From Malacoraja senta (Eukaryota), in contig CM075989.1 in NCBI GenBank assembly GCA_038087875.1, positions 22,942,001 through 23,002,000 on the forward strand: DNA of 60,000 bases, given 5' to 3'. Both the position numbers and the translations under genes were made by a program. The notes beneath the pieces are model-generated. The model was given only the letters and a program-made list of their open reading frames with translations, was not told where the DNA came from and ran no database searches. This document shows, one piece after another, positions 1 through 55,100 of the stretch (its first letter is position 1; each line of letters begins with the position of its first letter).

Positions 1-732
1 CAGCTTAGTGCGTCTATCTAAGAGCCACAGGCTCTTTCAAAATGCAGTGAGTTGTGATGTTTGGAAAGCATTGCCTTAGACGCTGGTGGAAGAAGACCGA
101 GCAGCATCTTCAAAAGAGAACTGGAGAATACTGATTGAGCAAACTACAGCACACTGGAGAACTCGCACAGAACTGGCGCCAGTCATATAACTTTGTCAAA
201 GATGTAGTACAGTCTTATAAGTTGAATCACCTGATACTTCAAATCTTCATTTGTTGTGAAAAACAGCAGGATTTGGTTGAATGAAATGAAAAATGCTGTC
301 GAGCTGCACACACTAAATATTTACACAACAAAAGCAGGTCAAGGAAAGAGCGTTCACGTCGCAGCCCTGTTTCCACCAATCTTTACACAACATATTGCTT
401 CATTCACGACCCAAAACTTTCCTGTGTCAAACAAAAGGATTGATGTCAACCATCAGTCTCAAGAAGGGTCTCGACCCAAAACGTCTCTCCAGAGATGCTG
501 CCTGTCCCGCTGAGTTACTCCAGCATTTTGTGTCTGATAGGATTGCTTTCTTAGTTTTAACATAGAAACATAGAAACATAGAAATTAGGTGCAGGAGTAG
601 GCCATTCGGCCCTTCGAGCCTGCACCGCCATTCAATATGATCATGGCTGATCATCCAACTCAGTTTTAATGGGAGGCCAGGGAAAAAGAACAGATTTATT
701 AGTTTGAATAACAAACCAACATATAAAACACA

Positions 733-1005
733 GCTGCTGCCTCACAGCGCCCGAGACCCGGGTTCGATCCTGACTACGGGTGCTGTCTGTACAGAGTTTT
801 CACGTTCTCCCTCTGACCACGTGGGTTTTCTCTGGGTGCTCCGGTTTCCTCCCACACTCCAAAGATTCGTGTTTGTAGGTTAATTGGCTTCTGTAAGTCG
901 TCCCTAGTGTGTATGATGCGAAAGTAGGAAAACAGTGTGAACGGATTATCGATGGTGGCCGAAGACTCGGTGAGTCAAAAGGCATGTTTCCATGTTTGTC
1001 TCTTC
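733..1005 (+). mobile_element. HE1-type V-SINE
   Basis: tRNA-like B box ggttcgatcc, V-domain ctccggtttcctcccacactccaaaga and CR1-like tail. Confidence 0.85.
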
Positions 1006-1119
1006 AGTTCTGGCCTTTTCCCACCTTCAGTTCCCCACCCTCTAATTCGCTGCAGAGAGTTTGATTTACACTTAGCACCTGAAACCAGCCTACAGATCTG
1101 AACATCAGGATGACACTAA

Positions 1120-1807
1120 AGCCCCTGTCCCACTTATGTGCCCTTGGCACGCTAATTACACGACCTCGTCGTCGCGTGGAGGTGCTACGGTCCCGCGAAG
1201 GTCAAGCGCGACTTAATTCGTACGCACAGCCGTCTGGAGCGCGTGACGTCATTTGAAGATGGACACAAAGCTGGAGTAACTCAGCGGGACCGGCAGCATC
1301 TCTGGAGAGAAGCAATGGGTGATGTTTCGGGTCGAGACCGTTCTTTCAGACTGAAGAAGGGTCTTGACCCAAAACATCATCCATTCCTTCTCTCCAGAGA
1401 TGCTGCCGGTCCCGCTGAGTTACTCCAGCATTTTGTGTCTATCTTCAATTTTCTTGGCCCCGCTCTGGGGAGTAGAAGCGGGGGCGGATCCGGATCCGCA
1501 ACGGCCGTGAGCCCCAGGCCGAGCTCGGCCATCGTTTGCCTGCTTCTGCTGCTGTTGGAGGTGAGACGTTGCGCTGCACCAGGGTCTTGTGCCTGTCCCA
1601 CTTTGGCCGTCAGTTACGCGACAGACCGTTGGCGCGCGAAGATTTCGTTCGCTACAAAATTTCGGAGCGCCGCGCCATACAACTACATACCCCTCCACGT
1701 TTCTCAGTGGGACCGGCCCCGCGCGGCCACACGATGCCCGTGCGCCTCAACGCAACCACGAGGTCGCGTAATTTGCGTGCCAAGGACACGTAAGTGGGAC
1801 AGGCCCT
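1120..1807. mobile_element. PIF/Harbinger-like MITE containing an inverted hammerhead-element pair
   Basis: TIRs agcccctgtcccactt.../...aagtgggacaggccct extend ~50 bp; TAA TSD at 1117-1119 and 1808-1810. Confidence 0.85.
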
Positions 1808-2422
1808 TAACTCTTCATCAGCCATGGTCCGGGCGACACCGACTGACTTCTCCGACAGCCCAGATGTTTGTCAACCCATGCTGGGAGATTGACAGATGTG
1901 CAGGCGAAAGACCACAGGGTCAGAGGTCGCTTAGCAACACTGACCCCAGGGCAAGTTCAAAGCATCTCTGGATTGTTTCACGTTAAACTGATCACAAAAG
2001 AACCTCTGCCAGCTGGTTCTCCTACAGGTCACATTATTCCCTTATCACACTTTAAATGGCTCGATTGTAATCGTGCATTGACTGATTAGCATGCAACAAA
2101 AAGCTTTTCACTGTAACTCGGTACACGTGACAATAAACTGAACCAGTCCAGTACATCGAGCGTAAGGATCTGACATTTTTGCAAATGGTGCCAAGATATG
2201 GAGACTCGTGCATGTGTGATTGCACATGTGACAAAAAAATTATCCCTAGTGTGTGATAGAACTAGTGCATGGGTAATTGCTGGATGGCCAGCATAGACTT
2301 AGTGGGCTGAAGAGCCTGTTTCCAGGTTGTCTCTCGAACCTAAACTAAAAACTAAACTAACTAAAAACAAATCAAACTTACTTCCAAACTAACGACCAGA
2401 AACGACACTAAAACTAAACTAA

Positions 2423-2743
2423 AGGGCCCTGTCCCACTGTACGAGGTAATTCAAGAGTTCTCCCGAGTTTCCCCTGATTCAAACTCGGAGAATTACGGTA
2501 ATAGCCACTCGTAGGTACTCGGGGCTCTCGTGGACATTTTTCAACATTTTGAAAAATCTTCACGAGTCTTCACGAGCTTACCGCGTTTCCCCGAGTACCT
2601 GCCGTTAGCGTTACGAGCCGCTAAGAGACGTCCCGAGCTCCGACGTACCCGCTACGTACATTCTACGTGCTTACCACGAGTTTCTTTTTTTTTTTTTAAC
2701 TCGGGAGAGCTCTTGAATTAGCTCGTACAGTGGGACAGCCCCT
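2423..2743. mobile_element. PIF/Harbinger-like MITE
   Basis: Long TIRs (ctgtcccactgtacgag.../...ctcgtacagtgggacag) and TAA TSD. Confidence 0.85.
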
Positions 2744-2878
2744 TAACTCAGCATTGACTGATTCATCCATAAAGGCCTCAGTGATGAAGCATGTGATTTG
2801 TAGGGGATCCACTAGAGGGCACAGACGCTCAATTTTACACTGGGAATCCTCACACATCCAAAGTTTCACCAGCACATA

Positions 2879-3158
2879 TTAGTTTAGTTTAGTTTACAGA
2901 TGCAGCCACCGAGTCCGTGCCGACCAGCGATCCCAGCACACTAACACTGCCCTACACACACTAGGGACAATTTACAATGTTACCAAGTCAATTAACCCAC
3001 AAACTTGCCTGTCTTTGGTGTGGGAGGAAACCGGAGCTCCCGGAGAAAACCCACGCAGGTCACGGGGAGATCGTACAAACTCCTTGCAGACAGCACCTGT
3101 AGCTAGGATCGAACCCAGGTCACTGGTGCTGTGAGGCAGCAGCTCTACCGCTGCGCCC
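2879..3158 (-). mobile_element. HE1-type V-SINE
   Basis: Reverse complement of the consensus seen in this window; (CTAAA)n tail. Confidence 0.85.
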
Positions 3159-3558: not shown

Positions 3559-3876
3559 CTTTAGATTTGATTGCATCCAATGGAAGAGCACACAACCTCG
3601 GCTCGCGTGACAATAAACCAAACTAAACATTACCCCACGTCCACACCACGGGCTCGGAGATTCTTCCCCAGTAAACGACATTAGGATTTCTGATGGTTCC
3701 CGGCCAATGAGAACTCAATGTTTGACAACCTTCCCCTCCCCGCCCCCAGCCAACAATTGACCGATCGGGGAACCACCCTGCCCGAGGTCATCTGTTGACG
3801 GACCCAATCTGTCCTGGTTGCTTCTTGCTTCATGTATTTCCCCCTCACCAATCAGTCTGAAGAATCGTCCCAACCT

Positions 3877-4262
3877 GAAACGTCACCTATCCATGTTCTC
3901 CACAGATGCTGCCTGACCCGCTGAGTTACTCCAGCACTCTGTGAAACGTCACCTATCCATGTTTCCCACAGATGCTGCCTGACCCACTGAGTTACTCCAG
4001 CACTCTGTGAAACGTCACCTATCCATGTTCCGGCAGCATCTATGGAGCGAAGGAAACAGGCAACGTTTCGGCCCGAAACCCTTCCGGGTTTCGGCCCGAA
4101 ACGTTGCCTATTTCCTTCAGGGTTTCGGCCCGAAAGGTTGCCCATTTCCTTCGCTCCACAGATTCTACCTGACCCGCTGAGTTACTCCAGCACTCTGTGA
4201 AACGTCACCTATCCATGTTCTCCACAGATGCTGCCTGACCCGCTGAGTTACTCCAGCACTGT
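3877..4262 (+). repeat. Tandem 66-bp subunits of the hammerhead-bearing element, with an internal inverted insert
   Basis: Unit gaaacgtcacc...ccagcactctgt at 3877, 3943, 4009 (partial) and ~4199. Confidence 0.85.
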
Positions 4263-5034
4263 GTCTATCGGTGCTTGGCAATATTAGCCTTTCATAATTA
4301 GATGATTAGACAAAGGCATGTTTGGTTCACAGGTGGAATGTGCAAACTAAAGAACGTCGCTCTTTTGTAAAGTGTACACTTTTGTACCCCAAGGATGCTG
4401 GGTGGATAAAGAGTTTGGAGCAGGGCAGCTCCTTCAAAGCTCCAAGCCCAAACACTGATCTTTTACCACAGAGGCAACCTGTTTGACCTGATTTGCTGCT
4501 TGTTATTCTTGGCATTCCTGGCGTGTCCTACATCCATAAATAGCAGCCTTCACCGAAGGCCTTGGCACGAAGGCAGATGGCAAGAAGACACACAACCAGC
4601 TGTCCATGACCTTTGCTCAGCACAATACCCAACCCACCACTATCTGAACACTATTTAAAGCTCACGGATTCAGACACTGAATGAAACACGTTATCTTGAG
4701 AGGCCCTGTCTTATTAGAATGATGGCGCGGCATTTTAAATGCATTAACCTGCTCCAGTTCCATGACTAAAAGTTTAATCCAACTCCAAATGAAGATAATA
4801 GATAACGTGACAGGAGATAAGGGACTTCACTTGTTCTCTTTAGTCTTTAGAGATACAGCACGGAAACAGGCCCTTCGGCCCATCAAGCCTGCGCCGACCA
4901 GCAATCCCCATACAAACTTGTACATCTTTGGAGTGTGGGAGGAAACCGGAGCACCCGGAGAAAATCCACGCGGTCACAGGGGGAACGTACAAACTCCGTA
5001 CAGACAGCACCCGTAGTCGGTATTGAACCCGGTT

Positions 5035-5715: not shown

Positions 5716-5863
5716 CTATTATATTTCCCACAGGCCAGAATCCTAGCATTGGAGAAACCAGTTAAGTAGAACCCATTACCTCTTTAACCCTCAGTGAATC
5801 TTCTAATCAGCATTACGTTGCTGGACAAATAATGATTCACGGAGGTCTAATGCTTCAACTAGA

Positions 5864-6305
5864 GCACGGTGGCGCAGCGGTAGAGTTGCTGCCTCACAGC
5901 GCCAGAGACCCGGGTTCGATCCTGACTACAGGTGCTGTCTCTGTATGGAATATATATGTTCTCCCCGTGACCTGCGTGGGGGTTTTCTGGGATCTCCAGT
6001 TTCCTCCCACACTCCAAAGACCTACAGGTTTGTACGTCTCTGAAGAAGGGTCTCGACCTGAAGCGTCGCCCATTCCTTCTCTCCAGAGATGATGCCTGTC
6101 CCGCTGAGTTACTCCAGCATTTTGTGTCTACCTTTGATTTGAACCAGCATCTGCAGTTCTTTCTTACACAGGTTTGTCAGTTAATTGGCGTTGGTATAAA
6201 TGTAAATTGTCCCTAGTGTATGTGGGATAGCATTAATGTGCGGGGTCGGCACGGACTCGGTGGGCCGAAGGGCCTGTTTCCACGCTATATCTCTCAACTC
6301 AACTA
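5864..6305 (+). mobile_element. HE1-type V-SINE interrupted by a hammerhead element
   Basis: A box ggtggcgcagcggtag and B box; the insert is flanked by acaggtttgt. Confidence 0.88.
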
Positions 6306-6850
6306 GAGCAGACCCACTCTTGCTAATAATGTTGACATTAAATAGTGTCAGTTTATCAGAATTTTGCTCCACGTATCCACATTACAAAATGCAATTAAAC
6401 TAAAATAAACACTTTGATTCGATACCAAATAGCCAAAGCAAGTAATTTCAATGATGACAGTCAGCCAATGACACAGTTCACACATTTGGTGAAGTGAATC
6501 TTGCCCTCGCCTGCAATTTTCGGTTTAACCCAGGGGTGGCGATGTTTCCCAATTTAATGGTTGGGCAGGACTGGTGTAGACAGAAGGTAGACAAAAATGC
6601 TGGAGAAACTCAGCGGGTGCAGCAGCATCTATGGAGCGAAGGAAATAGGCAACGTTTCGGGCCGAAACCCTTCTTCAGACTGGTGTAGACAGAGCCTATT
6701 TCCTTCGCTCCATAGATGCTGCTGCACCCGCTGAGTTTCTCCAGCATTTTTGCGTACCTCTGGTGTAGACAGAACCCAGTAACATGAATAATCTAACTTA
6801 CCGCTGCAATCTCTCTCTCCATCCCTCCCCCACCCAAGTCACACCAGCTT

Positions 6851-8605
6851 AAACATAGAAACATAGAAAATAGGTGCAGGAGTAGGCCATTCGGCCCTTC
6901 GAGCCTGCACCGCCATTCGATATGATCATGGCTGATCATCCAACTCAGTATCCCGTACCTGCCTTCTCTCCATACCCCCTGATCCCTTTAGCCACAAGGG
7001 CCACATCTAACTCCCTCTTAAATATAGCCAATGAACTGGCCTCAACTACCTTCTGTGGCAGAGAATTCCAGAGATTCACCACTCTCTGTGTGAAAAATGA
7101 TTTTCTCATCTCGGTCCTAAAAGACTTCCGCCTTATACTTAAACTGTGACCCCGTGTTCTGGACTTCCCCAACATCGGGAATAATCTTCCTGCATTTAGC
7201 CTGTCCAACCCCTTAAGAATCTTGTAAGTTTCTATAAGATCCCCCCTCAATCTTCTAAATTCGAGCAAGTACAAGCCGAGTCTATCCAGTCTTTCTTCAT
7301 ATGAAGTGCTGCCATCCCAGGAATCAGTCTGGTGAACCTTCTCTGTACTCCCTCTATGGCAAGAATGTCTTTCCTCAGATTTGGTGACCAAAACTGTACG
7401 CAATACTCCAGGTGTGGCCTCACCAAGACCCTGTACAACTGCAGTAGAACCTCCCTGCTCTTATACTCAAATCCTTTTGGTATGAATGCTAACATACCAT
7501 TTGCTTTCTTCACTGCCTGCTGCACCTGCATGCCTACTTTCAATGACTGGTGTACCATGACACCCAGGTCTCGTTGCATCTCCCCTTTTCCCAATCGGCC
7601 ACCATTCAGATAATAGTCTACTTTCCTGTTTTTGCCACCAAAGTGGATAACCTCACATTTATCCACATTATACTGCATCTGCCATGCATTTGCCCACTCA
7701 CCCAACCTATCTAAGTCACCTTGCAGCCTCCTAGCATCCTCCTCACAGCTAACACTGCCCCCCAGCTTCGTGTCATCAGCAAACTTGGAGATGTTGTATT
7801 CAATTCCCTCATCCAGATCATTAATATATATTGTAAATAGCTGGGGTCCCAGCACTGAGCCTTGCAGTACCCCACTAGTCACTGCCTGCCATTCTGAAAA
7901 GGACCCGTTTACTTCTACTCTTTGCTTCCTGTCTGCCAGCCAGTTCTCTATCCACATCAATACTGAACCCCCAATACCGTGTGCTTTAAGTTTGCATACT
8001 AATCTCTTATGTGGGACCTTGTCGAAAGCCTTCTGAAAGTCCAGATATAACACATCCACTGGTTCTCCCCTATCCACTCTACTAGTTACATCCTCGAAAA
8101 ATTCTATAAGATTCGTCAGACATGATTTACCTTTCGTAAATCCATGCTGACTTTGTCCAATGATTTCACCACTTTCCAAATGTGCTGCTATCCCATCTTT
8201 AATAACTGACTCTAGCATTTTCCCCACTACCGACGTTAGACTAACTGGTCTGTAATTCCCCGTTTTCTGTCTCCCTCCCTTTTTAAAAAGTGGGGTTACA
8301 TTAACTACCCTCCAATCCTCAGGAACTACTCCAGAATCTAAAGTGTTCTGAAAAATTATCACTAATGCATCCACTATTTCTGGAGCTACTTCCTTAAGTA
8401 CTCTGGGATGCAGCCTGTCTGGCCCTGGGGATTTATCGGCCTTTAATCCATTCAATTTACCTAACACCACTTCCCGACTAACCTGGATTTCACTCAGCTC
8501 CTCCATCTCATTTGACCCCCGGTCCCCTGCTATTTCCGGCAGATTATTTATGTCTTCCTTAGTGAAGACGGAACCAAAGTAGTTATTCAATTGGTCCGCC
8601 ATATC
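6851..8605 (-). mobile_element. CR1 LINE, 5'-truncated (RT + 3' end)
   Basis: 451-aa RT ORF 7247-8602 plus C-terminal ORF 6945-7403; (TTTCTATG)n tail. Confidence 0.96.
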
Positions 8606-9870
8606 CTGGAGAACGGGGCATTCTCACCGAGCTAACATTGCCCCGTTTCCATTATCATTGTTACTTGTTTTGCATTTCTTTCATTGATTTGTTCTGCATC
8701 ATCTATATCGCTCGTGACTTTCAGTCTGAAGAAGGGTCTCGTTACCCATTCCTTCTCTCCAGAGAGCTGCCTGTCCCACTGAGTTACGTGTCTATCTTTG
8801 GTATAAACCAGCATCTGCACTTCTTTGATCCTAATCATCATCTTTAGTTCTGTTTAAAGATACAGCACGGAAACAGGCCTTTCAGCCAGGTCCATGCTGA
8901 CCATCGATCACCCGTCCACGCAAGGTTCTAGGTTATCCCATTGCTCTCATGCACTCCTTACACACTGGGGGATAGTAAACAGAGGGCCAATTAACCCACA
9001 GTCCCGCACGTCTTTGGGGACCTGGGAGGAAACCGCAGCACCCGGAGGAAACCCACACGGTCACAGGGAGAACATGCAAACGCCAACTTGCCCCTGGAGT
9101 GCAGGTAGTGCAGTTCTGGCCTCCCCATGACAAGAGAGATGTGGATGCTTTAACCAGGGAGCAGAGGTGGTTTACCGGAATGCTGCCTGGCCCAGAGGGT
9201 TTCAGCTACAGGGTGAGCTTGGATAGACATGGATTGTTTTCTCTAGAACGTCGGAGATTGAGGGGGGACTTGAGAGAAGTGTATGAAATAATGAAAAGCA
9301 TAGATAGGGTAGACAGTCAGAACCTTTCATCCAGGGTGGAGATGTCCAGCACTAGAGGGCACAGCTATAAGATGAGAGGGGTCCTGGAACGCGTTGCCAG
9401 GGGTGGTGGTGGGCTCAGACACGTTGAGGAGGCATTTAGATAGGTGCAGGGTACTGAGGGATATGGAAATAGTCACTTCATGATGACTGCGTGGTCCTGC
9501 GCTTTCAGAAAACCGGGACATTAGATTTGCACCGCCAATCTTTTTGTGAACTTGTGCGGTTACTGCCCGTCACGGGTTTTATGCTTGCTGGGAATTTCTG
9601 CTCTCAAAAATCATCAGAAAGATAAAGATAGCATTGAGGCTGATCTGCATGTGAAAGAAAGGACAAAGTGCGGTTGGATAAACACAAGTGCTGCTCCCTG
9701 CAAAGGCAATTATAGGTGAGGCTTACGATAGTTCATCGAAATATGAAAGGCGATAGATAAGACAGTCTTGATCACAACTTCAAAGTGTGAAATCATAGTT
9801 ACTGCCAAGGACGGAGATTAAAATAGAGAGAATACTTTTTGATCAACTGCATTCACACATGCTTCAGAGA

Positions 9871-10033
9871 ACTAGACAAAAATGCTGGAGATACTCAGCG
9901 GATGAGGCAGCATTGTCTCGGCCCGAAACGTCGCCTATTTCCTTCGCTCCATAGATGCTGCCTCGCCCGCTGAGTTTCTCCAGCATTTTTTGTCTACCGA
10001 TTTTCCAGCATCCGCAGTTCCTTCTTAAACAAT
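9871..10033. mobile_element. Inverted pair of hammerhead-family elements
   Basis: 11-bp TSD tgcttcagaga. Confidence 0.75.
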
Positions 10034-11668
10034 TGCTTCAGAGAGCTGCCCATTCCCTCCAATGACCGAGAATGTTCAAAAACCCAATGAAATGCTGCAA
10101 CAACCTCTGCTTCTTTCAGTTTCAAGGACGAAGCAGCCTCTCCTCATCCTCAACTCACGCACTAACGGTGAGTTTTAATGGACGCTAAAATTTTAAAAAT
10201 GTTCAAAGCTCCGCATAAATCTTTGTTGCAGCTATCGCAGTTAAACTTAGGATGAGACAAGCATAGAAATGGGTGTCTGAAGAAGGGTCTCGACCCGAAA
10301 CGTCGCCCATTCCTTCTCTCCACAGATGCTGCCTGTCCCGCTGAGTTACATCAGCATTTTGTGTCTATCCTCAGAATCTGCTGTTCCTTCCTGCATATAG
10401 AAATGTGCGTCCTGGCTTTAGAATTGGTTAATGGTGTTCTACCCAGAGTGTACGGGCTGTGGAAATTGTTGCTACTCATGTCTGAAGATGATACTAAAGA
10501 ACACAGTTCGATCCTGACCACTGGTGCTTGTCTGTATGGAGTTTGTACGTTCTCCCCGTGAGCTGCATGGGTTTTCTCCAGGTGCTCCGGTTTCCTCCCA
10601 CACTCCAAAGACGTGCAGGTTTGTCGGCTAATTGGCTTCAGTAAAATTGTAAATGATTCCATGCGTGTGGGGTAGTGCTAGTGTTGGGGATCGCTGGTCG
10701 GTGCGGACTCAGGGGCCGGAGGGCCTGCTTCCGCGCTGTATCTCTAAACTAAACAAAACGCTGTGAGGTTAAGGAGAGAAGAATGCGTGAATTGAGAGGG
10801 GTGGGGACACTGACAAGTGAGAAAAACATTCTGGGAACGTTGAGGGGAATGTTGGAATGGCAGCAAGTCTGTGGTGTCATAAAAGTGGCAATTGGATTGT
10901 TGGTTTGTGCTGCCTTCTGCCCAGTGATAATTTGTGGTCTCGGATAAATATTTGAATTATACCCTGCAGGGTTTGAAGGTAATCTCAGATGCGTGTTTGA
11001 AAACTCGAAACACCAATGTAAATGCTGATTGCTTTTCTTGAAGCATGCCAGCTCTCTCCCTCTCTCTCTCTCCCTGGGCAGCCTGGCAGTGGAGGAAAGA
11101 TAGTTTTGTTTAGTCCCCGCACACTAACACTACACACAAGGAAACTAAGAACCTGCACGGCTTTGAAGTGTGGGAGGAAACCGGAGTGCCCGGAGAAAAC
11201 CCACGCGGGCACGGGGAGAAGGTACAAACTCCGTACAGACAGCACCCGTAGTCAGGATCAAACCCGGGTCTCTGGCGCTGCAAGGCAGCAACTCTACCGT
11301 ATCTCAGCGGGTCACGCAGCAGCATCTCTGGATAAGCGCTGAACTAGGAAAACCGGGTGTAAACCAGCAACTGCAGTTCCTTCTTACACGTGTGTAGAGT
11401 TTTCTCTCTTGCCTTCCCGTCATTGATAGCAGCATAAAGGGCGAGGTGTCTCTGCACCCAGCTTGCTTCTGTGGCTTTATCACAGAGGTTACAAAGATTG
11501 GCCATTTTTTTGAGAGGGGGGAGCAGGGGGAACTTATTCTCATTCCATTGGACTGATTGCAATCATTTACATTCATAGGTTCTTAAGTTCAAAAGTGATT
11601 GGAGCAGCATTAGGCCATTCGGCCCCATCAAGTCTCCTCCACCATTCAATCATGGCTGATCTATCTTT

Positions 11669-11880
11669 GACCCAGCAAACAGCTAACATTGGCCAGTTTC
11701 CTTTATCATCGTTAGTTTTATGCATATCTTTCATTCATTTGTCCTCTACCATCACCGCCTATATCTCTCATTTCCCTTTCCACTGACTCTAGTCTGAAGA
11801 AGGGTCTCGACCCGAAACGTCACCCATTCATTCTCCCCAGAGTTGCTGCCTGAGTTACTCCAGCATTTTGTGTCTGTCTT
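11669..11880 (+). mobile_element. Penelope-type non-autonomous element with a minimal hammerhead core (long form)
   Basis: CTGAAGA-A-GGGT-CTCG-ACCC-GAAACGTC at 11794-11821; 13-bp TSD ctgatctatcttt. Confidence 0.8.
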
Positions 11881-12517
11881 CTGATCTATCTTTCCCTCTC
11901 AACCCCATTCTCCTGCTTCCTCCCATAACCCGACACCCGCACTAATCGAGAACCTGCCACTCCCCACTTTAGAAGTACACATTGACTTGGCCTCCACTGC
12001 CATCCGTGGCAACGAATTTCACAGATTCACCATCCACTGGTTGAATTCATTCCTGCAGGTACCTTATATTGCCAGCAGTAAAGTACTAACAACAAAATGG
12101 CTAAAACATTGACAGATATTCTCGGCCAAAACCAATTATAAAATGTGTAGTCAAAACTGAAGTACAATTAAAAATAATATGCTGATCAAAGTTAAAATTA
12201 AGATGATTTACAATAGGTTTTAACAATATCAAAAGCACTTGTAGTCTGAAATCTTCAGGTAACCTTTGTAATCTAACCATGTATAGATTTGGAAAAAAGG
12301 TCCCGACTCAAAACGCCGTCTGTCCATTCCCTCCGCAAATGCTGCCTGACCCACTGAGTTACTCCAGCATTGTGTTTTGCTCAAGACTCCAGCATCTGCA
12401 GTCTCTTGTGTCTCCATATGTAGACATCGCGACATTTCAGCCGGAGAAAAAGGAATAGGTGACGTTTCGGGTTGAGACTCTTCTTCAGACCAGGGATTTC
12501 AGATTTGAATCTGAATT

Positions 12518-12614
12518 GGTCTGAAGAAGGGTTTCGGCCCGAAACGTTGCCTATTTTCCTTCGCTCCATAGATGCTGCTGCACCCGCTGAGTTTCTCCAG
12601 CACATTTGTCTATC
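12518..12614 (+). mobile_element. Hammerhead-core element (UUCG-loop variant)
   Basis: ctgaagaagggtttcggcccgaaacgtt; 14-bp TSD tttgaatctgaatt. Confidence 0.8.
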
Positions 12615-14944
12615 TTTGAATCTGAATTAATATTATTATTATTATTATTATTAAGGGTTTCAACCTGAAACGTCACCTATTCCTTTTTCTCCAGAGATGC
12701 TGCCTGACCCGCTGAGTTGTTCTAGCATTTTGTGTCCATTTCAGTGGAAACTAGCATCTGCAGTTCCTTCTTCCCACATTTTAGCGGATAGTTTCATACA
12801 ACCAATTATCCCCCAAAATTTTGGAGAATCAATAAAGTTAACCAGAATACGTTTATATGTTTGTAGCCGCGCTTCACACAAGACCAAATGCTCTCAACGC
12901 ACACACATTTTAATCATCCATTTGTGTTTTCTAATCCAAAATAATCTCAACACAAACAATGGGCTATTACTGCAGGAGATTTGCAACAACTGCTTAAGTA
13001 CAATTCATAGTTGTTTCTCCATTTGGCTGGGAAACTGTCTTCTGAGACTTAATGTAAAATGTCACAATACATTAGCGTTACCAGTAAAAAGGAGTTTCCC
13101 ATTGCTGTATAAACAGCTGGCAGTTATTGGAAGACTTGTATTTTTCTGGCAATTGGTCCAAATGCGCCCGATTCTTCCAATCAAGGACCACTAATGGGCA
13201 ATTTAAAAAACAAAGCAAAATGGACGACGCCTAACCCGCTGAGTGCCTCCCACACTTTGGTTTTAGTTTTTAATTTACAGCATTTTGCATCTTTTTCCAC
13301 TTTCAATACCATATTGGCTGTCACCCAGCATGGAGTCGGAGACATACAGCATGGAAACAGGCCCTGTGGCCCAACTTGCCAACTCCGACCAACGTGCCCC
13401 TTCTGCACCAGTCCCACTTGCCTGAGTTTGGTCCGTATCCCTCTAAACCAGTCCTATCTCCCATCTTGATTAGTGTGGGTGTCAGGGGTTATGGGGAGAA
13501 GGCAGGAGAACGGGGTTAGGAGGGAGAGATAGATCAGCCATGATTGGATGGAGGAGTGGTCTTGATGGGTCAAATGGGCCAAATTCTGTTCCTAGAAGTT
13601 ATGAACTATCCATAAAACTTCCGTCCACAACTTCAAATAGAAAGAACAATCTCACTTAAACCCGTGGCCATTTTGATGACAGCCAGCCTTGTGTTGTCAG
13701 TGGAAACTAACTATCTCCTGCCCACACCATAACCAGAACACCCAGGCTGATGGCTGCACTAGACTGTGTCTAGAACAAAGTGCTGGAGTAACTCAGCGGG
13801 TCCGGCAGCATCTCTGGGGGACATGGACAGTCAATGTTTTGGGTTGGGACCCTTCTTCACCCTGATAGTATTAGGGAGGAGAAAGCTGGAAGAGAGGTGG
13901 GAGCAGGACCAAGCCTGGCGAGTGATAGGTGGATGGACACAAAGTGCTGGAGCAACTCAGCGGGTCCCGCAGCATCTCTGGAGAAAAAGGGTCTGGGGTT
14001 TGAAGCCTGAAGAAGGGTCCCGGCCCGAAACGTCACCCATTCCTTCTCTCCAGAGATGCTGCCTGACCCATTGAGTTACTCCAGCACTTTGTGTCTATCT
14101 TCGGTCTAAATAGGCATCTGCAGATCCTTGTTTCTACAAATGATAGGTGGATAGAGGTGAATGATTGGCAGATGGGTGAACACAGACTGGAAATGAAAAC
14201 CAGTCAAAGGGGGATGGGTGGGGCTAAAAGAGACAAAAAGGAGAGCATGTTGATAAGGAGAGAAGGGAAGTGTATCTTTTGTTACTTTGTGGTCTCCTTT
14301 ATATGCAAAAACAACGATTTTCACTGTACTTAGGTACAAGTGACAATATAATATCATTATCATGGCAAGACCATGGGAAAATGAGTTCAGTTACTAGAAA
14401 TCTGAAAACACAAACTTAATGCTGGAAACGCTCCAGAGAATCAGGTAACATCCATGGGGAATGAAAACCAGAACCACAGGAAGTGTCCAGATCTCCACCC
14501 GACTACAGACTCCCCCTTTGTTTTCTCCACTCCTTCTGCATGTCTGTAACTTGAGATGCGTTAGATTTCGGACTTTCCTCAGCTCTGGCAGAAGACTATC
14601 GGGCTGAAGGTAGACGCAAAATGCTGGAGTAACTCAGCGGGTGAGGCAGCATCTCTGGAGAGAAAGAATGGGTGACCCCAAACGTCGACCATTCCTTCTG
14701 TCCAGAGATGCTGCCTCACCCGCTGAGTTACGGGTCTCGACCCCAAACGTCGACCATTCCTTCTGTCCAGAGATGCTGCCTCACCCGCTGAGTTACTCCA
14801 GCATTTTGTGTCTACCTTCGATTTTACCAGCATCTGCAGTTCTTTCTTACACTATCGAGCGGAGATGTCAAGTCTACTCACAACTGCCGAGCATTGCCAA
14901 TGTTTGCAAGTTCTGGCTTCAGATTGCCAGCATCTCCGTTATTA

Positions 14945-15250: not shown

Positions 15251-16689
15251 TTGCTTGTTTTTGCTTTTCAAGGCTTTCTATCTGGTATTACCTGGTTCAA
15301 AGCTGTTACAAATTCTATCACAGCTCCACCACTGCATCTAATCACAGCCGAAGCCACTGATGTGCACCTCCCGCTGACTCAAGCTCACAGTTTGTCATTA
15401 TGATACATCCCTCCAGCACCTTACTCAATGGAACTTAGTTATTAATTGGCTCTCAATGACTGCACTGCAGATAAAACAAAGTCTTCAACATAAAGTCTGC
15501 CAAACAAACTTTAAATACACGACCGAGACTGTTCTTGAAACGATAGTTACTCAAGAGAATACCATTTAAAAGTTCAAGTCAGAAACTTTACAGAGTCCAG
15601 CTGGCTGCTAACACAGTTCACTTTTGCGATACAGCGTGGAAACAGGCCCTTCAGCCCACTGAACCTGCACCGAAAATCAATCACCCATACACTAGGTCTA
15701 TTCTACACACACGAGGGACAATTTGCAGAAGCCAATTAACCTACAAACCCGCACGTCTTTGGAGTGTGGGAGGAAACCGGAGCGCCTGGAGAAAACCCAC
15801 GCAGGTCACGGGGAGAACGTATGAACTCCGTACAGACAGGTGGACTCTGAGGGCTGAAGGGCCTGCTTCCATTCTCTATCTCCCAACTAATCTGATCTAA
15901 ACTCCTTGCCTTTATCCACACATTAGGTACACAAAAATGCTGGAGAAACTCAGCGGGTGCAGCAGCATCTATGGAGCGAAGGAAATAGGCAACGTTTCGG
16001 GCCGAAACCCTTCTTCAGACCATTAAACAGCCCTTGCTGTCTCCTCCCCTTTCTCAGCCCTCGGGCTGTCTCCTCCCATCCCTCAGCCCTCGTTGCCTAT
16101 TTCCTTCGTTGCCTATTTCCTTCGCTCCATAAATGCTGCTGCACCCGCAGAGTTTCTCCAGCATTTTTTGTGTACCAATGATTAAACAAACTATTCTCCT
16201 CAAAACTGCCTGTTCATTGTGTCGTAAAGGGCCTTGGATCTAAAGGATGTGGCCTCAATTCCTAGTACGGGATCTATGCTGAAGGAATGTCGGAGCAAGG
16301 TCATCTGCATGTTGTAATTGATAACCTGAGGACATAGGTTTAAGGTGAGGGGGAGGGGGGGGGGAGAAAGATTTAATAGGAATCTGAGGGGCATTTTGTT
16401 TTTATACCCAAAGGGGTGGAAGGTGTAAAAAAAAATGAGATGCCAGAGGAGGAACTTTCTTGTAGATTCAGATTCAAATACAGATTAGTTTGGTGTCATA
16501 TACACCAGAGTGGAATGAAGTCCCTTCATCAAGTGTATGGAACGAACTGCCATAGGAGCTGTTAACTGTTCCTTTAAGGAGAGGATCGGTTTCTGTCCTG
16601 TTTCCACAGATGTTGGAAACAAGGAACTGCAGAGGCTGGTTTAAACCAAAGATAGACACAAAATGCTGGAGTAACTCAGCGGGACAGGT

Positions 16690-18334: not shown

Positions 18335-18471
18335 CTCAACCAGTCTGAAGAAGGGTCTCAACCCGAAACGTCGCCCATTCCTTCTCTCCAGAGATGCTGC
18401 CTGTCCCGCTGAGTTACTCCAACATTTTGTGTCTACCTTCGATTTAAACCAGCATCTGCAGTTCTTTCATC
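18335..18471 (+). mobile_element. Hammerhead-core element
   Basis: 13-bp TSD cacacaaccatgt. Confidence 0.8.
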
Positions 18472-18912
18472 CACACAACCATGTTCGCCAGTTTGGCTGA
18501 TACTCTGGAACTAAACCAGTTTAGTTTAGCATAGTTTAGAGATACAGCGCAGAAACCGTCCCTTTGGCCCACCGAGTCCGCACCGATCAGCGATCCCCAC
18601 ACACTAACACTAGCCTGCACACACCTGGGACTATTTACATTTACACCAAGCCAATCGGCCTACTAACCTGTACGTCTTTGGAGTGTTGGAGGAAACTGAA
18701 GATCTCGGAGAAGACGGCGTGGGTTTTCTCCGAGTTCTTCGTCTTCCTCCCGCACAACCTCTGCAACTTAGCACAGCATTGGATGGGCAGCACATGCAGC
18801 AAGCACGTCCATGTACACAACAGTTGGCAGCTTTGATCAGTGCAGCTAATGTGTTGATCCTTGCAGCAGCAGGAGCCAGTGTCGCGAGGCGGAACACAGT
18901 GAAGTTGCTCAC

Positions 18913-19027
18913 CGCAGCGGTCCCGAATGACCAGGCGACGTCCCTCCTTCAGGTGAATCTTCAGCAGGTACGAGGGGAGTTGGCATGACGACGGGTCGCT
19001 ACTTTTCCCTTCTTGTTGCTCCAAGGC
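18913..19027 (-). CDS. MCTP2: MCTP2-like 115-nt exon, start of the first C2 domain
   Basis: Encodes ALEQQEGKSSDPSSCQLPSYLLKIHLKEGRRLVIRDRC(G), matching the MCTP2 C2A motif [20 protein letters not shown]. Acceptor ttgtttgtgtcccag|, donor G|gtgag (phase 1). Confidence 0.92.
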
Positions 19028-19974: not shown

Positions 19975-20071
19975 AGTCTGAAGAAGGGTTTCGGCCCGAA
20001 ACGTTGCCCATTTCCTTCGCTCCATAGATGCTGCTGCACCCGCTGAGTTTCTCCAGCACTTTTGTCTACCC
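19975..20071 (+). mobile_element. Hammerhead-core element (UUCG variant)
   Basis: 10-bp TSD actctcttgg. Confidence 0.8.
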
Positions 20072-22552: not shown

Positions 22553-22615
22553 CTGCTCTTCGAAGAACATCGAACTTTGCGAAGACTCCAGGTCTGTACC
22601 TTCACCAAGTTCATC
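22553..22615 (-). CDS. MCTP2: MCTP2-like 63-nt internal exon (DELGEGTDLESSQSSMFFEEQ)
   Basis: Acceptor tcttatttttcag|GAT, donor CAG|gtaaag, phase 0/0, no stop. Resembles the recalled MCTP2 segment ...SDLNASMTSQHFEEQ and sits between the other two exons. Confidence 0.82.
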
Positions 22616-23633: not shown

Positions 23634-25314
23634 TTAGATACAACAACAGAATCTGCAGAAGAGACCTGACCCAAACCATCACCCAATGCTGCTATCACAA
23701 AAGATAGACATACTGCTGGAGTAACTCGACTTTACGAGGGTGGTGCCCAAACTAGAGGGTGTGAGCAATAGGTAGAGGTCGACTCGGCTGGGACTCTATT
23801 CCTTGGAGTGCAGGAGGATGAGGGGTGATCTTATAGGAGGTGTATAAAATCATGAGAGGAATAGATTGGGTAGACGCTCAGAGTCTCTTGCCCAGACTCA
23901 GGGAATCGAGGACATCAGTTCAAGGTGAAGGGGAAAAGATTTATTAGGAATCTGAGGGGTAACTTTTTCACACAAAGGGTGGTGGGCGTATGGAACAAGC
24001 TGCCAAATAAGGTAGGTGAGGCTGGGACTATCCCAAGGTTTAAAAAAAAGTTAGACATGTACATGGATAGTTGTTTAAGGAAGAAACGCAGATGCTGGAA
24101 AAATCAAAGGTAGACAAAAAATGGTGGAGAAACTCAGCGGGTGAGGCAGCTTCGAGGGAGAGAAGGAATTGACGATGTTTCGGGTCAAGACCCTTCTTCA
24201 GATGGGACAGGTTTGGAGGGATATGGACCAAGCGCGGGCAGGTGGGACCAGTGTAACTGGGACATGTTGGCCAGTGTGGGCAAGTTGGGCCGAAGGGCCT
24301 GTTTCCACACTGTATCACTTTATGACTCAGAGGGACATGCCACGTGTCTGGAGAGACCCTTCTTTGGACTATCACAATGTTGAAGAACCATTTGAATAGG
24401 TAGGAAGTAGATCAGTCATGAACAACAGAGTCATTTTGTTTCAAGATGCTCTTCCTTGATTTAATTTCCCACCAGGACATTAACGGCAAGCGCAACACTC
24501 CTTCAAACGGCAATGGAAAGCCAACACAGAACCTTTGCCACAGAAAATTTGAGTCGGGACCCAAAACACATCGTCGGTCACTTGGAGATCAGAACGCTGA
24601 CAACCGAGCCACTGAAAGAATGGTTGGAAAAACCACAGGCAGGCTGTCTCACCATTCTCATTTCCACCCTGACCACACGGCCTGTACCATCGATACTTTT
24701 TTGCATCGTGTTCACTCAGTTGTTCTACATCTCTCTACACTACCTCTATATATCTCTCGTTTCCCTTTCCACCGACTCTCAGTCTAAAGAAGGGTCTCGA
24801 CCCGAAACATCACCTATTTTTTCCCTCCACAGATGCTGCCTGTCCCGCTGAGTTACTCCAGCATTTTGTGTGTCCATCACCATTTCCTCATCCTGTTTTA
24901 AATGATCAACCGGAAGCGCCTTCAATTCGATGGGAAACTCTACATTTTCTGGAAGATTTTCATCACCACAGTTTCCTTTTTATTTCTCAACGGGACCACG
25001 TCTGTAATAAACCAATTTATTCTTATTGTTTAATTAGTAAACAACATTCCATAAACTGGCTGCTCTGCCTTCAACACATTTCCGCCCACACCCTTCATCT
25101 CTGCCCGTTTTGCACGATATCCTTGTTTGATGAAAGCTGCCAGTGATTTCTGCATAAATTCTTCTCGTCTACTTATTAAACTTGTTTTATCTTATTTCCC
25201 ACAGGACTGGGTGACAGAGCACAATCAAACACTTAGATTAAGGCATCGTAAAGTCCTTACGGTGGCCACGGTAGCACGGCAGTCATGACTAGTTAAGATG
25301 TTTCGGTTCTTTAA

Positions 25315-27309: not shown

Positions 27310-27509
27310 AGATAGACAGCGGGACAGGCATCATCTCTGGAGAGAAGGTTTGGGTGGCGTCTCGGGTAGAGGCTCGAAACGTTAAGTAAGAAGGGTCTCA
27401 ACCCAAAACGTCACCCATTGCTTCTCTTCAGAGATGCTGCCTGTATCGTCGAGTTACTCCAGCGTTTCATGTCTTTCTCCGGTGTAAACCAGCATCCGCA
27501 GTTCCTTCC
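27310..27509. mobile_element. Inverted pair of hammerhead-core elements inside a CR1 3' end
   Basis: 15-bp TSD tacctttagaatgga. Confidence 0.75.
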
Positions 27510-28381: not shown

Positions 28382-31300
28382 AACTAGAATGGTTGGGGGG
28401 AGGGACTCAAATAGAGAATGCTATTAGACAGTGTGTGAGGCAGGAGGCAGAGAAGGAAAGCACTCAGACCCAACATGTAGGGGTGAAAGAAGAAAACAAT
28501 AATAAACAGAGAATAAGAGGTGGTGGGGTTCTTAAATGGGTGAGCAGAGAAACAGAGGGGTGTAAAATGCGGGCGGAAGCAATAGGTAGCAAGGTGAAAG
28601 GTAAAAGTGGCAGGCAGACAAATTCAGGGCAAAAATCAAAAAGAGCCACTTTTCAACATAATTGTATAAGGGGTAAGAGCGTTGTAAAAACAAGCCTGAA
28701 GGCTTTGTGTCTCAATGCAAGGAGCATTCGTAATAAGGTGGATGAGTTGAACGTGCAGATAGCAATTAATGATTATGATATAGTTGGGATCACGGAGACA
28801 TGGCTCCAAGGTGACCAAGGCTGGGAGCTGAACATCCAGGGGATATTCAATATTCAGGAGGGATAGAGAGAAAGGAAAAGGAGGTGGGGTAGCGTTGCTG
28901 GTTAGAGAGGAGATTAACGCAGTGGAAAGGAAGGACATTAGCTTGGAGGATGTGGAATCGGTATGGGTAGAGCTGCGAAACACTAAGGGGCAGAAAACGC
29001 TGGTGGGCGTTGTGTACAGGCCACCTAGCAGTAGTAGTGAAGTTGGGGATGGCATCAAAACAGGAAATTAGAAATGCGTGCAACAAAGGCAAAACAGTTA
29101 TAATGGGTGACTTCAATCTACATATAGATTGGGTGAATCAAATTGGCAGGGGTGCTGAGGAAGAGGATTTCTTGGAATGTATGAGGGATAGTTATCTAAA
29201 CCAACATGTAGAGGAACCAACGAGAGAGCAGGCTATTCTAGACTGGGTATTGAGTAATGAGGAAGGGTTAGTTAGCAGACTTGTTGTGCGTGCCCCCTTG
29301 GGCAAGAGTGATCATAATATGGTTGAGTTCTTCATTAGGATGGAGAGTGACATTGTTAATTCAGAAACAACAGTTCTGAACTTAAAGAAAGGTAACTTTG
29401 AGGGTATGAGATGTGAATTGGCCAAGATTGACTGGCAATTAGTTCTAAAAGGGTTGATGGTGGATATGCAATGGAAGGCATTTAAAGACTGCATGGATGA
29501 ACTACAAAAATTGTTCATCCCAGTTTGGCAAAAGAATAAATCAAGGAAGGTAGTGCATCCGTGGATAACAAGGGAAATCAGGGATAGTATCAAAGCAAAA
29601 GATGATGCGTACAAATTAGCTAGAAAAAGCAGCATACCAGAGGACTGGGAGAAATTCAGAGACCAGCAGAGGAGGACAAAGGGCTTAATTAGGAAAGGGA
29701 AAATAGATTATGAAAGGAAACTGGCAGGGAACATAAAAACTGACTGCAAAAGTTTTTATAGATATGTGAAGAGAAAGAGATTAGTTAAATCAAATGTAGG
29801 TCCCTTGCAGTCAGAAACAGGTGAATTGATCATGGGGAACAAGGATATGGCAGACCAATTGAATAACTACTTTGGTTCCGTCTTCACTAAGGAAGACATA
29901 AATAATCTGCCGGAAATAGCAGGGGGCCGCGGGTCAAAGGAGATGGAGGAACTGAGTGAAATCCAGGTTAGTCGGGAAGTGGTGTTGGGTAAATTGAATG
30001 GATTAAAGGCCGATAAATCACCAGGGCCAGATAGGCTGCATCCCAGAGTACTTAAGGAAGTAGCTCCAGAAATAGTGGATGCATTAGTGATAATTTTTCA
30101 AAACTCTTTAGATTCTGGAGTAGTTCCTGAGGATTGGAGGGTAGCAAACGTAACCCCACTTTTTAAGAAGGAGGGAGAGAGAAAACGGGGAATTACAGAC
30201 CAGTTAGTCTAACATCGGTAGTGGGGAAACTGTTAGAGTCAGTTATTAAAGATGGGATAGCAGCACATTTGGAAAGTGGTGAAATCATTGGACAAAGTCA
30301 GCATGGATTTACGAAAGGTAAATCGTGTCTGACGAATCTTATAGAATTTTTCGAGGATGTAACTAGTAGAGTGGATAGGGGAGAACCAGTGGATGTGTTG
30401 TATCTGGACTTTCAGAAGGCTTTCGACAAGGTACCACATAAGAGATTAGGATACAAACTTAAATCACACGGTATTGGGGGTTCAGTATTGATGTGGATAG
30501 AGAACTGGCTGGCAAACAGGAAGCAAAGAGTAGGAGTAAACGGGTCCTTTTCACAATGGCAGGCAGTGACTAGTGGGGTACCGCAAGGCTCAGTGCTGGG
30601 ACCCCAGCTATTTACAATTTATATTAATGATCTGGACGAGGGAATTGAAAGCAACATCTCCAAGTTTGCGGATGACACTAAGCTGGGGGGCAGTGTTAGC
30701 TGTGAGGAGGATGCTAGGAGACTGCAAGGTGACTTGGATAGGCTGGGTGAGTGGGCAAATGTTTGGCAGATGCAGTATAATGTGGATAAATGTGAGGTTA
30801 TCCACTTTGGTAGCAAAAACGGGAAGGCAGACTATTATCTATGGTGGCCGATTAGGAAATGGGGAGATGCAGCGAGACCTGGGTGTCATGGTACACCAGT
30901 CATTGAAAGTAGGCATGCAGGTGCAGCAGGCAGTGAAGAAAGCGAATGGTATGTTGGCCTTCATAGCAAGAGGATTTGAGTATAGGAGCAGCGAGGTTCT
31001 ACTGCAGTTGTACAGGGTCTTGGTGAGACCACACCTGGAGTATTGCGTACAGTTTTGGTCTCCAAATCTGAGGAAGGACATTATAGCCATAGAGGGAGTG
31101 CAGAGAAGGTTCACCAGACTGATTCCTGGGATGTCAGGACTTTCATATGAAGAAAGACTGGATAGACTTGGCTTATACTCGCTAGAATTTAGGAGATTGA
31201 GAGGGGATCTTATAGAAACGTACAAGATTCTTATGGGGTTGGACAGGCTAGATGCAGGAAGATTGTTCCCGATGTTGGGGAAGTCCAGGACAAGGGGTCA

Positions 31301-31598
31301 CAGCTTAAGGATAAGGGGGAAATCCTTTAGGACCGAGATGAGGAAAAACTTTTTCACACAGAGAGTGGTGAATCTCTGGAACTCTCTGCCACAGAGGGTA
31401 GTTGAGGCCAGTTCATTGGCTATATTTAAGAAGGAATTAGATGTGGCCCTTGTGGCTAAAGGGATCAGGGGGTATGGAGAGAAGGCAGGTACGGGATACT
31501 GAGTTGGATGATCAGCCATGATCGTATTGAATGGCGGTGCAGGCTCGAAGGGCCGAATGGCCTACTCCTGCACCTATTTTCTATGTATCTATGTATCT
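28382..31598 (+). mobile_element. CR1 (HER1-like) LINE, 5'-truncated, with near-complete ORF2 (APE endonuclease + RT) broken by frameshifts
   Basis: APE motifs LNARSI, GITETW, MGDFN and SDH; RT motifs YLDFQKAFDKV, GVPQGSVLGP and KFADD. Frame changes near 28840, 30175 and 30840. (TATCTATG)n tail. Confidence 0.96.
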
Positions 31599-32628: not shown

Positions 32629-32727
32629 ACTAGTCTGAAGAAGGGTCTCGACCCGAAACGTCACCCATTCCTTCGCTCCAGTGATGCTGCCTGTCCCGCT
32701 GAGTTACTCCAGCTTTGTGTCCACCTA
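32629..32727 (+). mobile_element. Hammerhead-core element inserted just after the B box of an HE1 SINE
   Basis: 10-bp TSD cgatcctgac. Confidence 0.8.
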
Positions 32728-33091: not shown

Positions 33092-33315
33092 AAATGTTTA
33101 AAAAAAAAGAACTGCAGATGCTGGAAAAATCTAAGGTAGACAAAAATGCTGGAGTAACTCAGCGGGTGAGGCAGCATCTATGGAGCGAAGGATCAGGCGA
33201 TGTTTCAGGTCGAGACCCTTCTTCAGACTGAAGAAGGGTCTCGACCCCAAACGTCGCCTATTCCCTCGCTCCATAGATGCTGCCTCACCCGCTGAGTTTC
33301 TCCAGCATTTTTGTC
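33092..33315. mobile_element. Head-to-head inverted pair of hammerhead-core elements
   Basis: Palindrome centred on ttcagactgaa (~33225); 12-bp TSD tcttcaggaaag. Confidence 0.8.
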
Positions 33316-50216: not shown

Positions 50217-50675
50217 CACATATTTTCCTTCCATCATTGTATCTGCCAGGGTCACGTCCGGAATGATTTCCTCGTCGGTTCTGCTGGATTCCTTCTCCGA
50301 TGCAGGCAACCCAATGGGTGGAGAAGCTTCATTGTCAGGGCAGGGGTTTGCAGGTTGACCAGCCTCCACCGAGAGTGCCGCACCCTCCTGGAGGATGTCC
50401 TCTTCACTCCTCTCGTCCGCCTTCTTGACTGGGGTGGAGGGGCTGCTGTAGTAATTGGGGGCACGGGACGGGACGATGGGGGGCGAGCAGCCTTCGTTGT
50501 AGCTCTTGACCACCTGCAGCATGTCGGGCTCCGACACGCTCATCCGCTTGTCCAGGAGTCGTCTCTGCAAGCCTGCCTTCCTCTTGCCCGACATCTTGCC
50601 CTTCAGGTTCTGCAGGAGGGGTTTGGTCTTCGCCCGGAAGGACCTCCACCTGGTGATCTCCTTCTGCTCATCCAT
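50217..50675 (-). CDS. MCTP2: MCTP2-like first coding exon (153 codons); the exon probably extends as 5'UTR to an acceptor at 50757
   Basis: MDEQKEITRWRSFRAKTKPLLQNL...RRLLDKRMSVSEPDML resembles the MCTP2 N-terminus as I recall it (WGSLKQRTRPLLINL...HHLDRRLSLSVPDLL). Phase-0 donor GTG|gtaagt at 50217/50216. Pyrimidine-rich acceptor ctctctttctccag| ends at 50758. Confidence 0.88.
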
Positions 50676-54300: not shown

Positions 54301-55100
54301 GCTCTGGCAATAGGATGGACTTTGTCAGGAAACATCAGTGACATCCCAAGAAGGACGTCTTTGACCACAAGGCCCTGACCAAGAGTCTCCACACCCCCGG
54401 AGGCAACGGGCAGAGATTCACGAGGTTTTCTCCTCACAAATACACAGGCTTCACTGTGGACGGCTTGGTTGCATTCATGTTTGACTGGATAGCACGAGAC
54501 AAAATCCTTTCACTGTCCCCCAGTACACGTGACAATAAACTAAAAATGTTGATGTGATATGCATCCTGGATTTATCATTCTCACAAGAATAATTTCTTCA
54601 ATTTCACACAATGAGGCTGCAGTTGATGTTCCTTCCCCCAAAACATCGACACTTTCCTGAATTAATTCAATAATCTGTCAACTCCTCGAGCTTAAAAATC
54701 AGTCCCAAGCATTCTCAGCCACTAAAACTCTACAGCCCTCCTTAGTCGAGGATTCCAGAAGTTCAAAAACCATTCGGCAAAAGAGCATCTACACATCCCT
54801 ACCTTGAATGGCTGAACCTCTATTTTATTTAGACACAAGAAGCTGGAGGAACTCAGCGGGTCAGGAAGCATCTCTGGAGAGAAGGAATGGGTGACGTTTC
54901 GGGTCCCTTCTTCAGACTAGGGAAAACCCACTGAGTTACTCCAGCACTGTGTATCGATCTTCGGTTCAAACCAGCATCTGCAGTTCCTTCCTACTCTATT
55001 TCAATTAATTTAGTTTAATATTTTCATGTGTACCGAGGTACAGTGAAAAGCTTTTGTTTGCCTGATATCTAATCCCAGACCCTCCCACTACTGGAAACAT

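Follow-up and report, generated by a model that had tools for sequence, protein, structure and literature searches.

The short hammerhead-bearing repeats in the window, a 60,000-nucleotide stretch of skate DNA, are best read from their sequence as terminal fragments of an abundant skate Penelope-like element (PLE), a retrotransposon of a kind already known. The one unusual trait is a fixed start, at the same base near the hammerhead core, in most copies.

Copies of the repeat and their host locus

A profile built from 12 window copies detected 67 repeat segments (38 on the plus strand, 29 on the minus strand) and none in the reversed window, in agreement with a sequence-only reading of this DNA that had described dozens of copies on both strands. 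The segments merge into 41 loci and occupy 5,780 bases, which is 9.6% of the window; within bases 1-41000 the share is 13%. Copy density drops sharply towards and past the first MCTP2 coding exon, with 5 of the 67 segments to the right of 41 kb. The repeat was present in all four public contig runs (from four studies), with 102,722, 93,369, 8,815 and 1,671 contigs matched. These are not copy numbers, and contigs permit no conclusion about expression or the ends of RNAs. In one run the number of distinct contigs matched was about 10^5. The share within bases 1-41000 suggests that a substantial part of skate intronic DNA is PLE-derived. Public records matching the stretch itself were coded as nine organisms, and one of 22 rows held at least half of its words. 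The exact family motif was absent from the metagenome, viral and prokaryote contigs searched.

The placement of MCTP2 on the minus strand was borne out by protein matches and three mapped exons. The frame 50187-50699 matches 14 cartilaginous-fish MCTP2 proteins, the best at 86% identity to two skates, and mapping of the skate homologue gave the following exons:

50217..50675, minus strand: MCTP2 coding exon, residues 1-153 of the skate homologue
22553..22615 (approximate bounds), minus strand: MCTP2 coding exon
18911..19027 (approximate bounds), minus strand: MCTP2 coding exon

Across these three exons, residues 1-213 of 878 were all that was found in the window; the gene must therefore extend past the left end of the window, and we infer that the copies left of 50.2 kb are intronic. 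Searching the protein atlas with an MCTP2 exon yielded no usable match, and a second exon had none in the PDB. No selection against sense-strand copies was detected in the MCTP2 intron, at low power: the minus strand carries 28 of 64 segments (p = 0.38) and 3 of 10 intact cores (p = 0.34).

Many copies are bounded by target-site duplications (TSDs). All eight TSDs listed in the sequence-only reading proved to be exact direct repeats of 10-15 bp that abut the insert ends given for them. Across the family, a repeat of at least 9 bp within 25 bp of both ends was found at 11 of 41 loci, compared with 29 of 1000 random intervals. The span that the reading had named, 11656-11893, comprises a 13-bp TSD, a 212-bp insert (11669-11880) and an exact 13-bp TSD. 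The empty site of this insert is present in public contigs, where joints skip 221-226 nt in three of the four runs. Its parts are as follows:

11656..11668, no strand: left TSD, 13 bp, exact repeat of 11881-11893
11669..11790, plus strand: pyrimidine-rich 122-nt "head", upstream part of the presumed pseudo-LTR (pLTR); homologous heads occur elsewhere in the window
11791..11793, plus strand: AGT, 5' strand of stem I and usual start of headless copies
11794..11821, plus strand: minimal type I hammerhead core, predicted cleavage after 11821
11822..11880, plus strand: downstream body, ending near model position 98 with the short 3' end; 8 nt fewer than in other copies
11881..11893, no strand: right TSD, 13 bp, exact repeat of the left TSD

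Other insertions used below are:

12518..12614, plus strand: headless copy of the young UUCG type with the short 3' end; 14-bp TSD
19975..20071, plus strand: headless copy of the young UUCG type with the short 3' end; 10-bp TSD
18335..18471, plus strand: long-form copy with a tail of about 35 nt; 13-bp TSD
6034..6167, plus strand: long-form copy with tail, inside a SINE-like repeat; 10-bp TSD
32629..32727, plus strand: short-form copy, inside a SINE-like repeat; 10-bp TSD
24657..24876, plus strand: copy with a 125-nt head and short 3' end; 8-bp TSD, weaker call
33092..33315, no strand: head-to-head palindrome centred on CAG-A-CTG, tail on the left arm and none on the right; 12-bp TSD
9871..10033, no strand: inverted pair with 5'-truncated arms, tail on one; 11-bp TSD
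13935..14140, no strand: inverted pair lying within the upstream flank of an older minus-strand copy (13770-13859), one arm with a tail; 12-bp TSD
27310..27509, no strand: inverted pair, tail on one arm; 15-bp TSD
54826..54993, no strand: inverted pair with one tailed arm; weaker call, 8-bp TSD
6586..6759, no strand: inverted pair with a third target copy between the arms; 15-bp TSD; young UUCG type
3855..4276, no strand: partial tandem of 66-bp and 34-bp sub-units, without two consecutive complete hammerheads

Inverted copies with a palindromic junction include 33092-33315, 1253-1455, 34002-34165 and others. A second young UUCG-type inverted pair, with target-like or duplicated host DNA between its arms, lies at 15922-16189.

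The two ends of the copies

We analyzed 3' ends in 15 TSD-bounded insertions, chosen by eye and including two with only 8-bp repeats, and 20 of their 21 arms were measurable. The ends fall at model positions 91-98 (11 of 20 arms) or 123-138 (9 of 20), with none between, so that there are two 3' ends about 35 nt apart. In five of the six two-armed inverted insertions, the extension, or tail, is restricted to one arm. Passages in PMC8557442 and PMC3846280 describe a PLE tail of 30-40 bp, often on one end only, and PMC11167929, in its account of the anole element PAc, equates the tail with the stretch between two internal reverse-transcription start sites. We consider this two-site pattern of 3' ends and tails the strongest sign of a PLE origin.

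The start of the model is reached by 34 of the 67 segments. By hand count, these 5'-complete copies include eight with a shown or possible head, five palindromic junctions and about 21 that start within about 3 bases of the core. Among the 21 plain starts, a purine occupies position -3 in 17 and a C occupies position -4 in only three, which sets the boundary at -3. Only one of the 67 segments starts at the hammerhead cleavage site, namely the plus-strand arm at 6694 of the 6586..6759 pair. The public contigs mark the same boundary. Summed word depth in run X1 is 0.28 million over 11780-11789 and 16.9 million over 11790-11799, a genome-wide step at 11790/11791 that is inflated because the reference copy deviates at 11790 and heads of other types also occur. 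Across the four runs, the loose 5' ends with the best support lie at 11791-11794 and have unrelated letters upstream (agreement 0.31-0.41), and among the ends listed for these runs none falls at cleavage site 11822. The fixed 5' start suggests that the copies derive from short "strong-stop" cDNAs made on uncleaved RNA.

The head at 11669..11790 is homologous to the heads at about 8630-8723 and 24657-24781, with none of 200 shuffles reaching the score, and is repeated in all four contig runs. Possible heads before 3855 and after 13859 show no homology to other heads. The 11669..11790 head ends in CTAG just before the core, where other copies have CTCAG, and the 5' boundary sits in TCAGTCT, a motif that contains a YAG acceptor and, together with the CTGA of the core, makes up a near-palindrome. 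TCAGTCT also fits the initiator consensus. PLE start sites are placed in the pLTR, with an initiator-like TCACT in a rotifer pLTR, in the relevant passages of PMC8557442, PMC3846280 and PMC2377424. We also looked for palindromic additions at headless 5' junctions, and these were not general.

The YAG raises the question of splicing, in which the head would be a 5'-UTR intron ending in CAG/TCTG, as in Drosophila Penelope, and headless copies would come from spliced RNA. The pyrimidine-rich heads with a YAG just before the core fit this explanation, as does the D. virilis intron, which ends at the 5' strand of helix I according to a passage in PMC4209133. However, most headless copies keep the AG and lack a common upstream exon, and the letters beyond -3 are heterogeneous in window copies and likewise at loose contig ends. 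We therefore find a splicing origin scarcely credible.

Hammerhead core and Penelope-like relatives

The core consists of CUGAAGA, an extra A, a 4-bp stem II with a 4-nt loop, GAAA and a palindromic ACGU. The pattern CUGAAGA-A-GGGU[CUCG]ACCC, first drawn from the letters by the sequence-only reading, was confirmed by nine exact matches in the window against 0.00 expected from 100 shuffles, and 26 matches were obtained with up to three mismatches. This design is that of the minimal hammerheads of metazoan PLEs as described in parts of PMC4209133, which have CUGANGA, an extra unpaired base after A9, a G10.1-C11.1 pair and a palindromic ACGU at 15.2-16.2 in place of helix III. The skate helices are at the short end of the reported range, with 4 bp in helix II and 2-3 bp in helix I, compared with 7-8 and 4-5 bp in Schistosoma and a 2-bp helix I in D. 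virilis (same source). The Rfam hammerhead model had no match at gathering score in the whole window and none at E up to 10 in bases 1-41000, where the only matches were to below-threshold hairpins, mostly on inverted repeats.

The core is intact in 10 of 32 core-covering segments. Two subfamilies differ in the stem II loop, and the UUCG subfamily is young, with a pairwise difference of 2.5% among four copies versus 8.7% among six copies of the CUCG type. The existence of this subfamily had been proposed together with a retained stem II; the former holds, whereas the stem II change is one-sided and not compensatory (U-A in 31 rows, U-G in nine, other in three). Expected conservation of the core relative to its flanks was likewise found in part. 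None of nine non-CpG core columns differs between subfamilies, against 14 of 52 downstream columns. In the 27 rows that span both regions, per-copy decay was not significantly lower in the core than in monomorphic downstream columns (10 of 243 versus 72 of 1026, p = 0.11), while the comparison with all downstream columns gave p = 2e-6. Decay is unhindered at the CpG positions of the core (20 of 81). Constancy between subfamilies without clear constraint on individual copies indicates selection on source elements and not on the copies.

The suspicion that a short stem I leaves many copies inactive was supported. Stem I measures 0-3 bp in all 11 window matches, most cores are not intact, and a competing fold is favoured. 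Stem II had a probability of at most 0.04 in all seven folded copies, and the cleavage-competent fold was 3.9-8.6 kcal/mol worse in each of them, because the core pairs with downstream sequence; in 11822..11880, it is the first 15-20 nt of the body that pair with the core in the predicted fold. Monomer folds were no more stable than shuffles (z from -0.94 to 0.49), and the ACGU duplex was weak (-1.7 kcal/mol). Small PLE-associated hammerheads reportedly cleave as dimers, according to a 2017 paper. Solo copies, having no stem III partner, should mostly not cleave. These folding energies leave out protein help, and a protein enabled cleavage in the anole element in the experiments outlined in PMC11167929. 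In the folding model, the ribozyme is probably mostly off in the window copies. Intact cores on the strand transcribed with MCTP2 are spaced 6-9 kb apart, and a hammerhead threat to the MCTP2 pre-mRNA appears unlikely.

The headless, tail-less UUCG copies could instead represent a self-propagating, non-autonomous, SINE-like mini-element, in which a 95-nt unit, above all of the UUCG type, serves as master RNA for a PLE protein acting in trans. All four complete UUCG-type copies are headless and tail-less and share the same ends at 2.5% difference, and a rotifer pLTR sequence alone mobilised DNA in trans, according to a passage in PMC3846280. Arguing against this, the anole protein, as characterised in a section of PMC11167929, needs RNA well beyond the first initiation site (the first 172 nt of the ORF), and a unit without a tail does not contain that RNA. 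A longer source is also implied by the headed copies and by arms that are truncated at many different positions. Scanning with the Pol III A- and B-box consensus found an A-box in none of the 67 segments and a B-box in one, and the window holds no tRNA, so that there is no internal Pol III promoter and the suggestion of a SINE is not supported. We consider a mini-element unlikely; the UUCG type is nevertheless the best candidate for a separate non-autonomous family.

We then compared the repeats with 62 loci retrieved either by PLE-like ORFs or by the hammerhead motif. A looser core motif retrieved two metagenome loci and none from viral or prokaryote contigs, and a PLE profile found nothing in viral contigs. 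In one of the two loci (L002), the same GGGT-N4-ACCC core with a 4-bp stem II directly precedes a 961-codon ORF. This ORF matches the RT family PF00078 at E 5.6e-6, below the curated cut-off, and its homologues carry RT and GIY-YIG families. Positions 1-3018 of this metagenome contig appear to be an intact PLE, with the hammerhead followed by the 961-codon RT and GIY-YIG-type frame. The other locus (L001) has the core upstream of a broken RT, in inverted orientation and again in a TCAGT context. The other 60 loci (L003-L062) were fetched through an alignment of 20 PLE-like proteins and come from prokaryote genome records, many of them repeats within a few records; they are probably host-animal contamination of prokaryote assemblies. 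A minimal-hammerhead scan matched 15 of the 62 loci and nothing in reversed sequence. The motif is duplicated around the ORF in L008 and L015-L017, two of which have a repeat that runs to 55-66 nt past the start of the core. L015-L017 also show a tandem array with a spacing of about 3.9 kb.

Skate family sequence beyond the core occurred in none of the 62 loci. Within the window, no PLE ORF remnant was found, with profile E-values of 4.2 or worse and no tblastn match from 121 proteins. As no family sequence is shared beyond the core, membership rests on structural signatures and not on homology to a coding element. The proposal of a Penelope-derived family with a minimal, dimer-type hammerhead thus gains from the tail, the palindromic junctions and the occurrence of this core design beside RT and GIY-YIG ORFs, while homology to a full-length skate PLE was not shown. 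A degenerate frame at 36270-36740 was considered as the C-terminus of a PLE endonuclease and rejected: the resemblance was by eye only, the frame had no Pfam family and no homologue, with one unrelated bacterial protein matched, and it was absent from the matches of the 121-protein PLE profile. It is followed by a pyrimidine-rich stretch and tail-like pieces.

A retrozyme-like origin had also been proposed. Non-LTR retrozymes resemble the skate repeats in being noncoding, hammerhead-bearing and pLTR-related with long TSDs (parts of PMC7229834 and bioRxiv 2026.07.22.740005); transcripts of tandem arrays would be cleaved by dimeric hammerheads and closed into circles, to be inserted again as monomers. 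According to portions of the preprint, retrozymes derive from pLTRs, occur in one chondrichthyan genome that was tested and are recognised by two or more tandem units in a row, all with a complete hammerhead. Joints running head to tail, from 11880 back to 11791, were found in 33, 26, 3 and 0 contigs of the four runs, one of them with a tail between, yet they are few among about 100,000 contigs. No tandem in the window (units of 66, 34, 65 and 16 bp) has two complete cores, and the copies run intact through the cleavage site, with the single exception given above. Retrozymes use canonical type I hammerheads in units of 150-450 bp, according to a section of PMC7229834, whereas the skate unit is shorter, its hammerhead is minimal and it shows no sign of cleavage-site starts. 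The 6-bp helix I of a canonical type I hammerhead was found in none of the 11 window matches. Their short stem I also contrasts with the PLE loci, in which it spans 1-6 bp, mostly 4-6; among 11 distinct motifs of these other loci, stem I reaches at least 3 bp in eight (excluding L001) and at least 4 bp in seven. We consider a retrozyme origin of the window copies very unlikely. The joints in a few dozen contigs elsewhere are in favour of a minor retrozyme-like fraction.

Proposed origin of the copies and other repeats

We think it probable that the copies are dead-on-arrival pLTR insertions made by the element's own RT and GIY-YIG protein in five steps. First, the endonuclease would nick the target with a stagger of 8-15 bp, leaving the TSDs that are observed. 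Second, reverse transcription would start inside the RNA, about 95 or about 130 nt past the 5' edge of the hammerhead, a mechanism borrowed from part of PMC11167929 to account for the two observed 3' ends. Third, the template would be uncleaved RNA with its core held in a competing hairpin, as folding and the rarity of starts at the cleavage site suggest. Fourth, synthesis would mostly stop at the A or G three bases before CUGAAGA, the position at which copies are seen to begin. The likeliest cause, which we hold only tentatively, is that the RNA begins there, at the initiator-like TCAGTCT, which would make each copy a "strong-stop" cDNA. The next candidate, doubtful in our view, is stalling or fold-back at the TCAG-T-CTGA near-palindrome. 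Fifth, occasional fold-back would give the observed head-to-head palindromes with a tail on one arm, and longer templates would give the minority with upstream heads.

Taken further, the repeats may be an extensive skate fossil record of Penelope "strong-stop" cDNAs, a possibility that we offer as speculative. RNA would start at the 5' edge of the hammerhead, priming would occur 95 or 130 nt in on uncleaved RNA, and run-off would yield a fixed-length noncoding unit in nearly all events, while full-length copies would arise only through read-through or tandem RNA. Such a start differs in position from that of Drosophila Penelope, which lies about 120 nt upstream of the hammerhead and before the intron in the descriptions given in PMC2377424 and PMC4209133. 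If true, the strong-stop reading would unite pLTRs, solo minimal hammerheads and head-to-head palindromes in one sense-strand mechanism, and the antisense template put forward in a passage of PMC3846280 would not be needed.

The closest known counterparts are the pLTR ends of EN+ PLEs (Penelope/Poseidon and Neptune), which share with the skate copies a minimal hammerhead near the end, an optional tail of 30-40 bp on one end, 5' truncation, copies inverted head to head, palindromic junctions and TSDs of 8-15 bp. The skate family differs from them in having no ORF seen, in consisting mostly of solo units of 95-135 nt and in its fixed 5' start. Like the skate repeats, the anole Poseidon element PAc has two RT starts past the hammerhead that give two 3' ends; its uncleaved RNA template and protein-dependent ribozyme were demonstrated in vitro in the work described in sections of PMC11167929, whereas in skate we infer them from genomic copies. 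The local density in skate is very high, at 10 intact cores per 60 kb, and the 4,000 and 9,000 per genome in coelacanth and Xenopus were called remarkable in a passage of PMC4209133.

We found no description of this skate repeat family in the literature, although Repbase, Dfam and the tables of the retrozyme preprint may contain it, and the main text of two papers on the little skate genome does not mention "Penelope". The element class, minimal hammerheads, tails and palindromes are already in print, and this is not a new kind of element. The features of wider, genome-scale interest are the fixed 5' start and the copy density. How PLEs form their ends and what role the hammerhead plays are presented as open questions in passages of PMC8557442 and PMC11167929, and many TSD-bounded short copies in one genome could show, to the single base, where synthesis initiates, stops and folds back.

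Several other repeats share the window. Pieces of a non-LTR retrotransposon ORF, which we take to be CR1-like, lie at 28971-31499 (plus strand), 7250-8623 (minus strand) and 59185-60000 (minus strand), and 7250-8623 matches RVT_1 at E 7e-32. Many short 3' fragments of this presumably CR1-like element are also present, one of which hosts the insertion 11669-11880. A SINE-like repeat family, presumably HE1-like, occurs at 32560-32760, 37190-37256, 5850-6033 and 35750-35990. The hammerhead copies at 32629 and 37251 occupy the same position in this SINE-like repeat and have the same ACT before their start, reflecting either a target hot spot or a chimeric family. A 15-bp unit is repeated 41 times in tandem at 41831-42449 (97% matches), with several open frames, and a CT-rich low-complexity tract at 56063-57551 lies between copies of a repeated segment. 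An unclassified dispersed repeat, matched over about 45 bp, has at least six copies, at 2091-2135, 14300-14350, 35471-35515, 42924-42954, 43996-44026 and 55018-55061.
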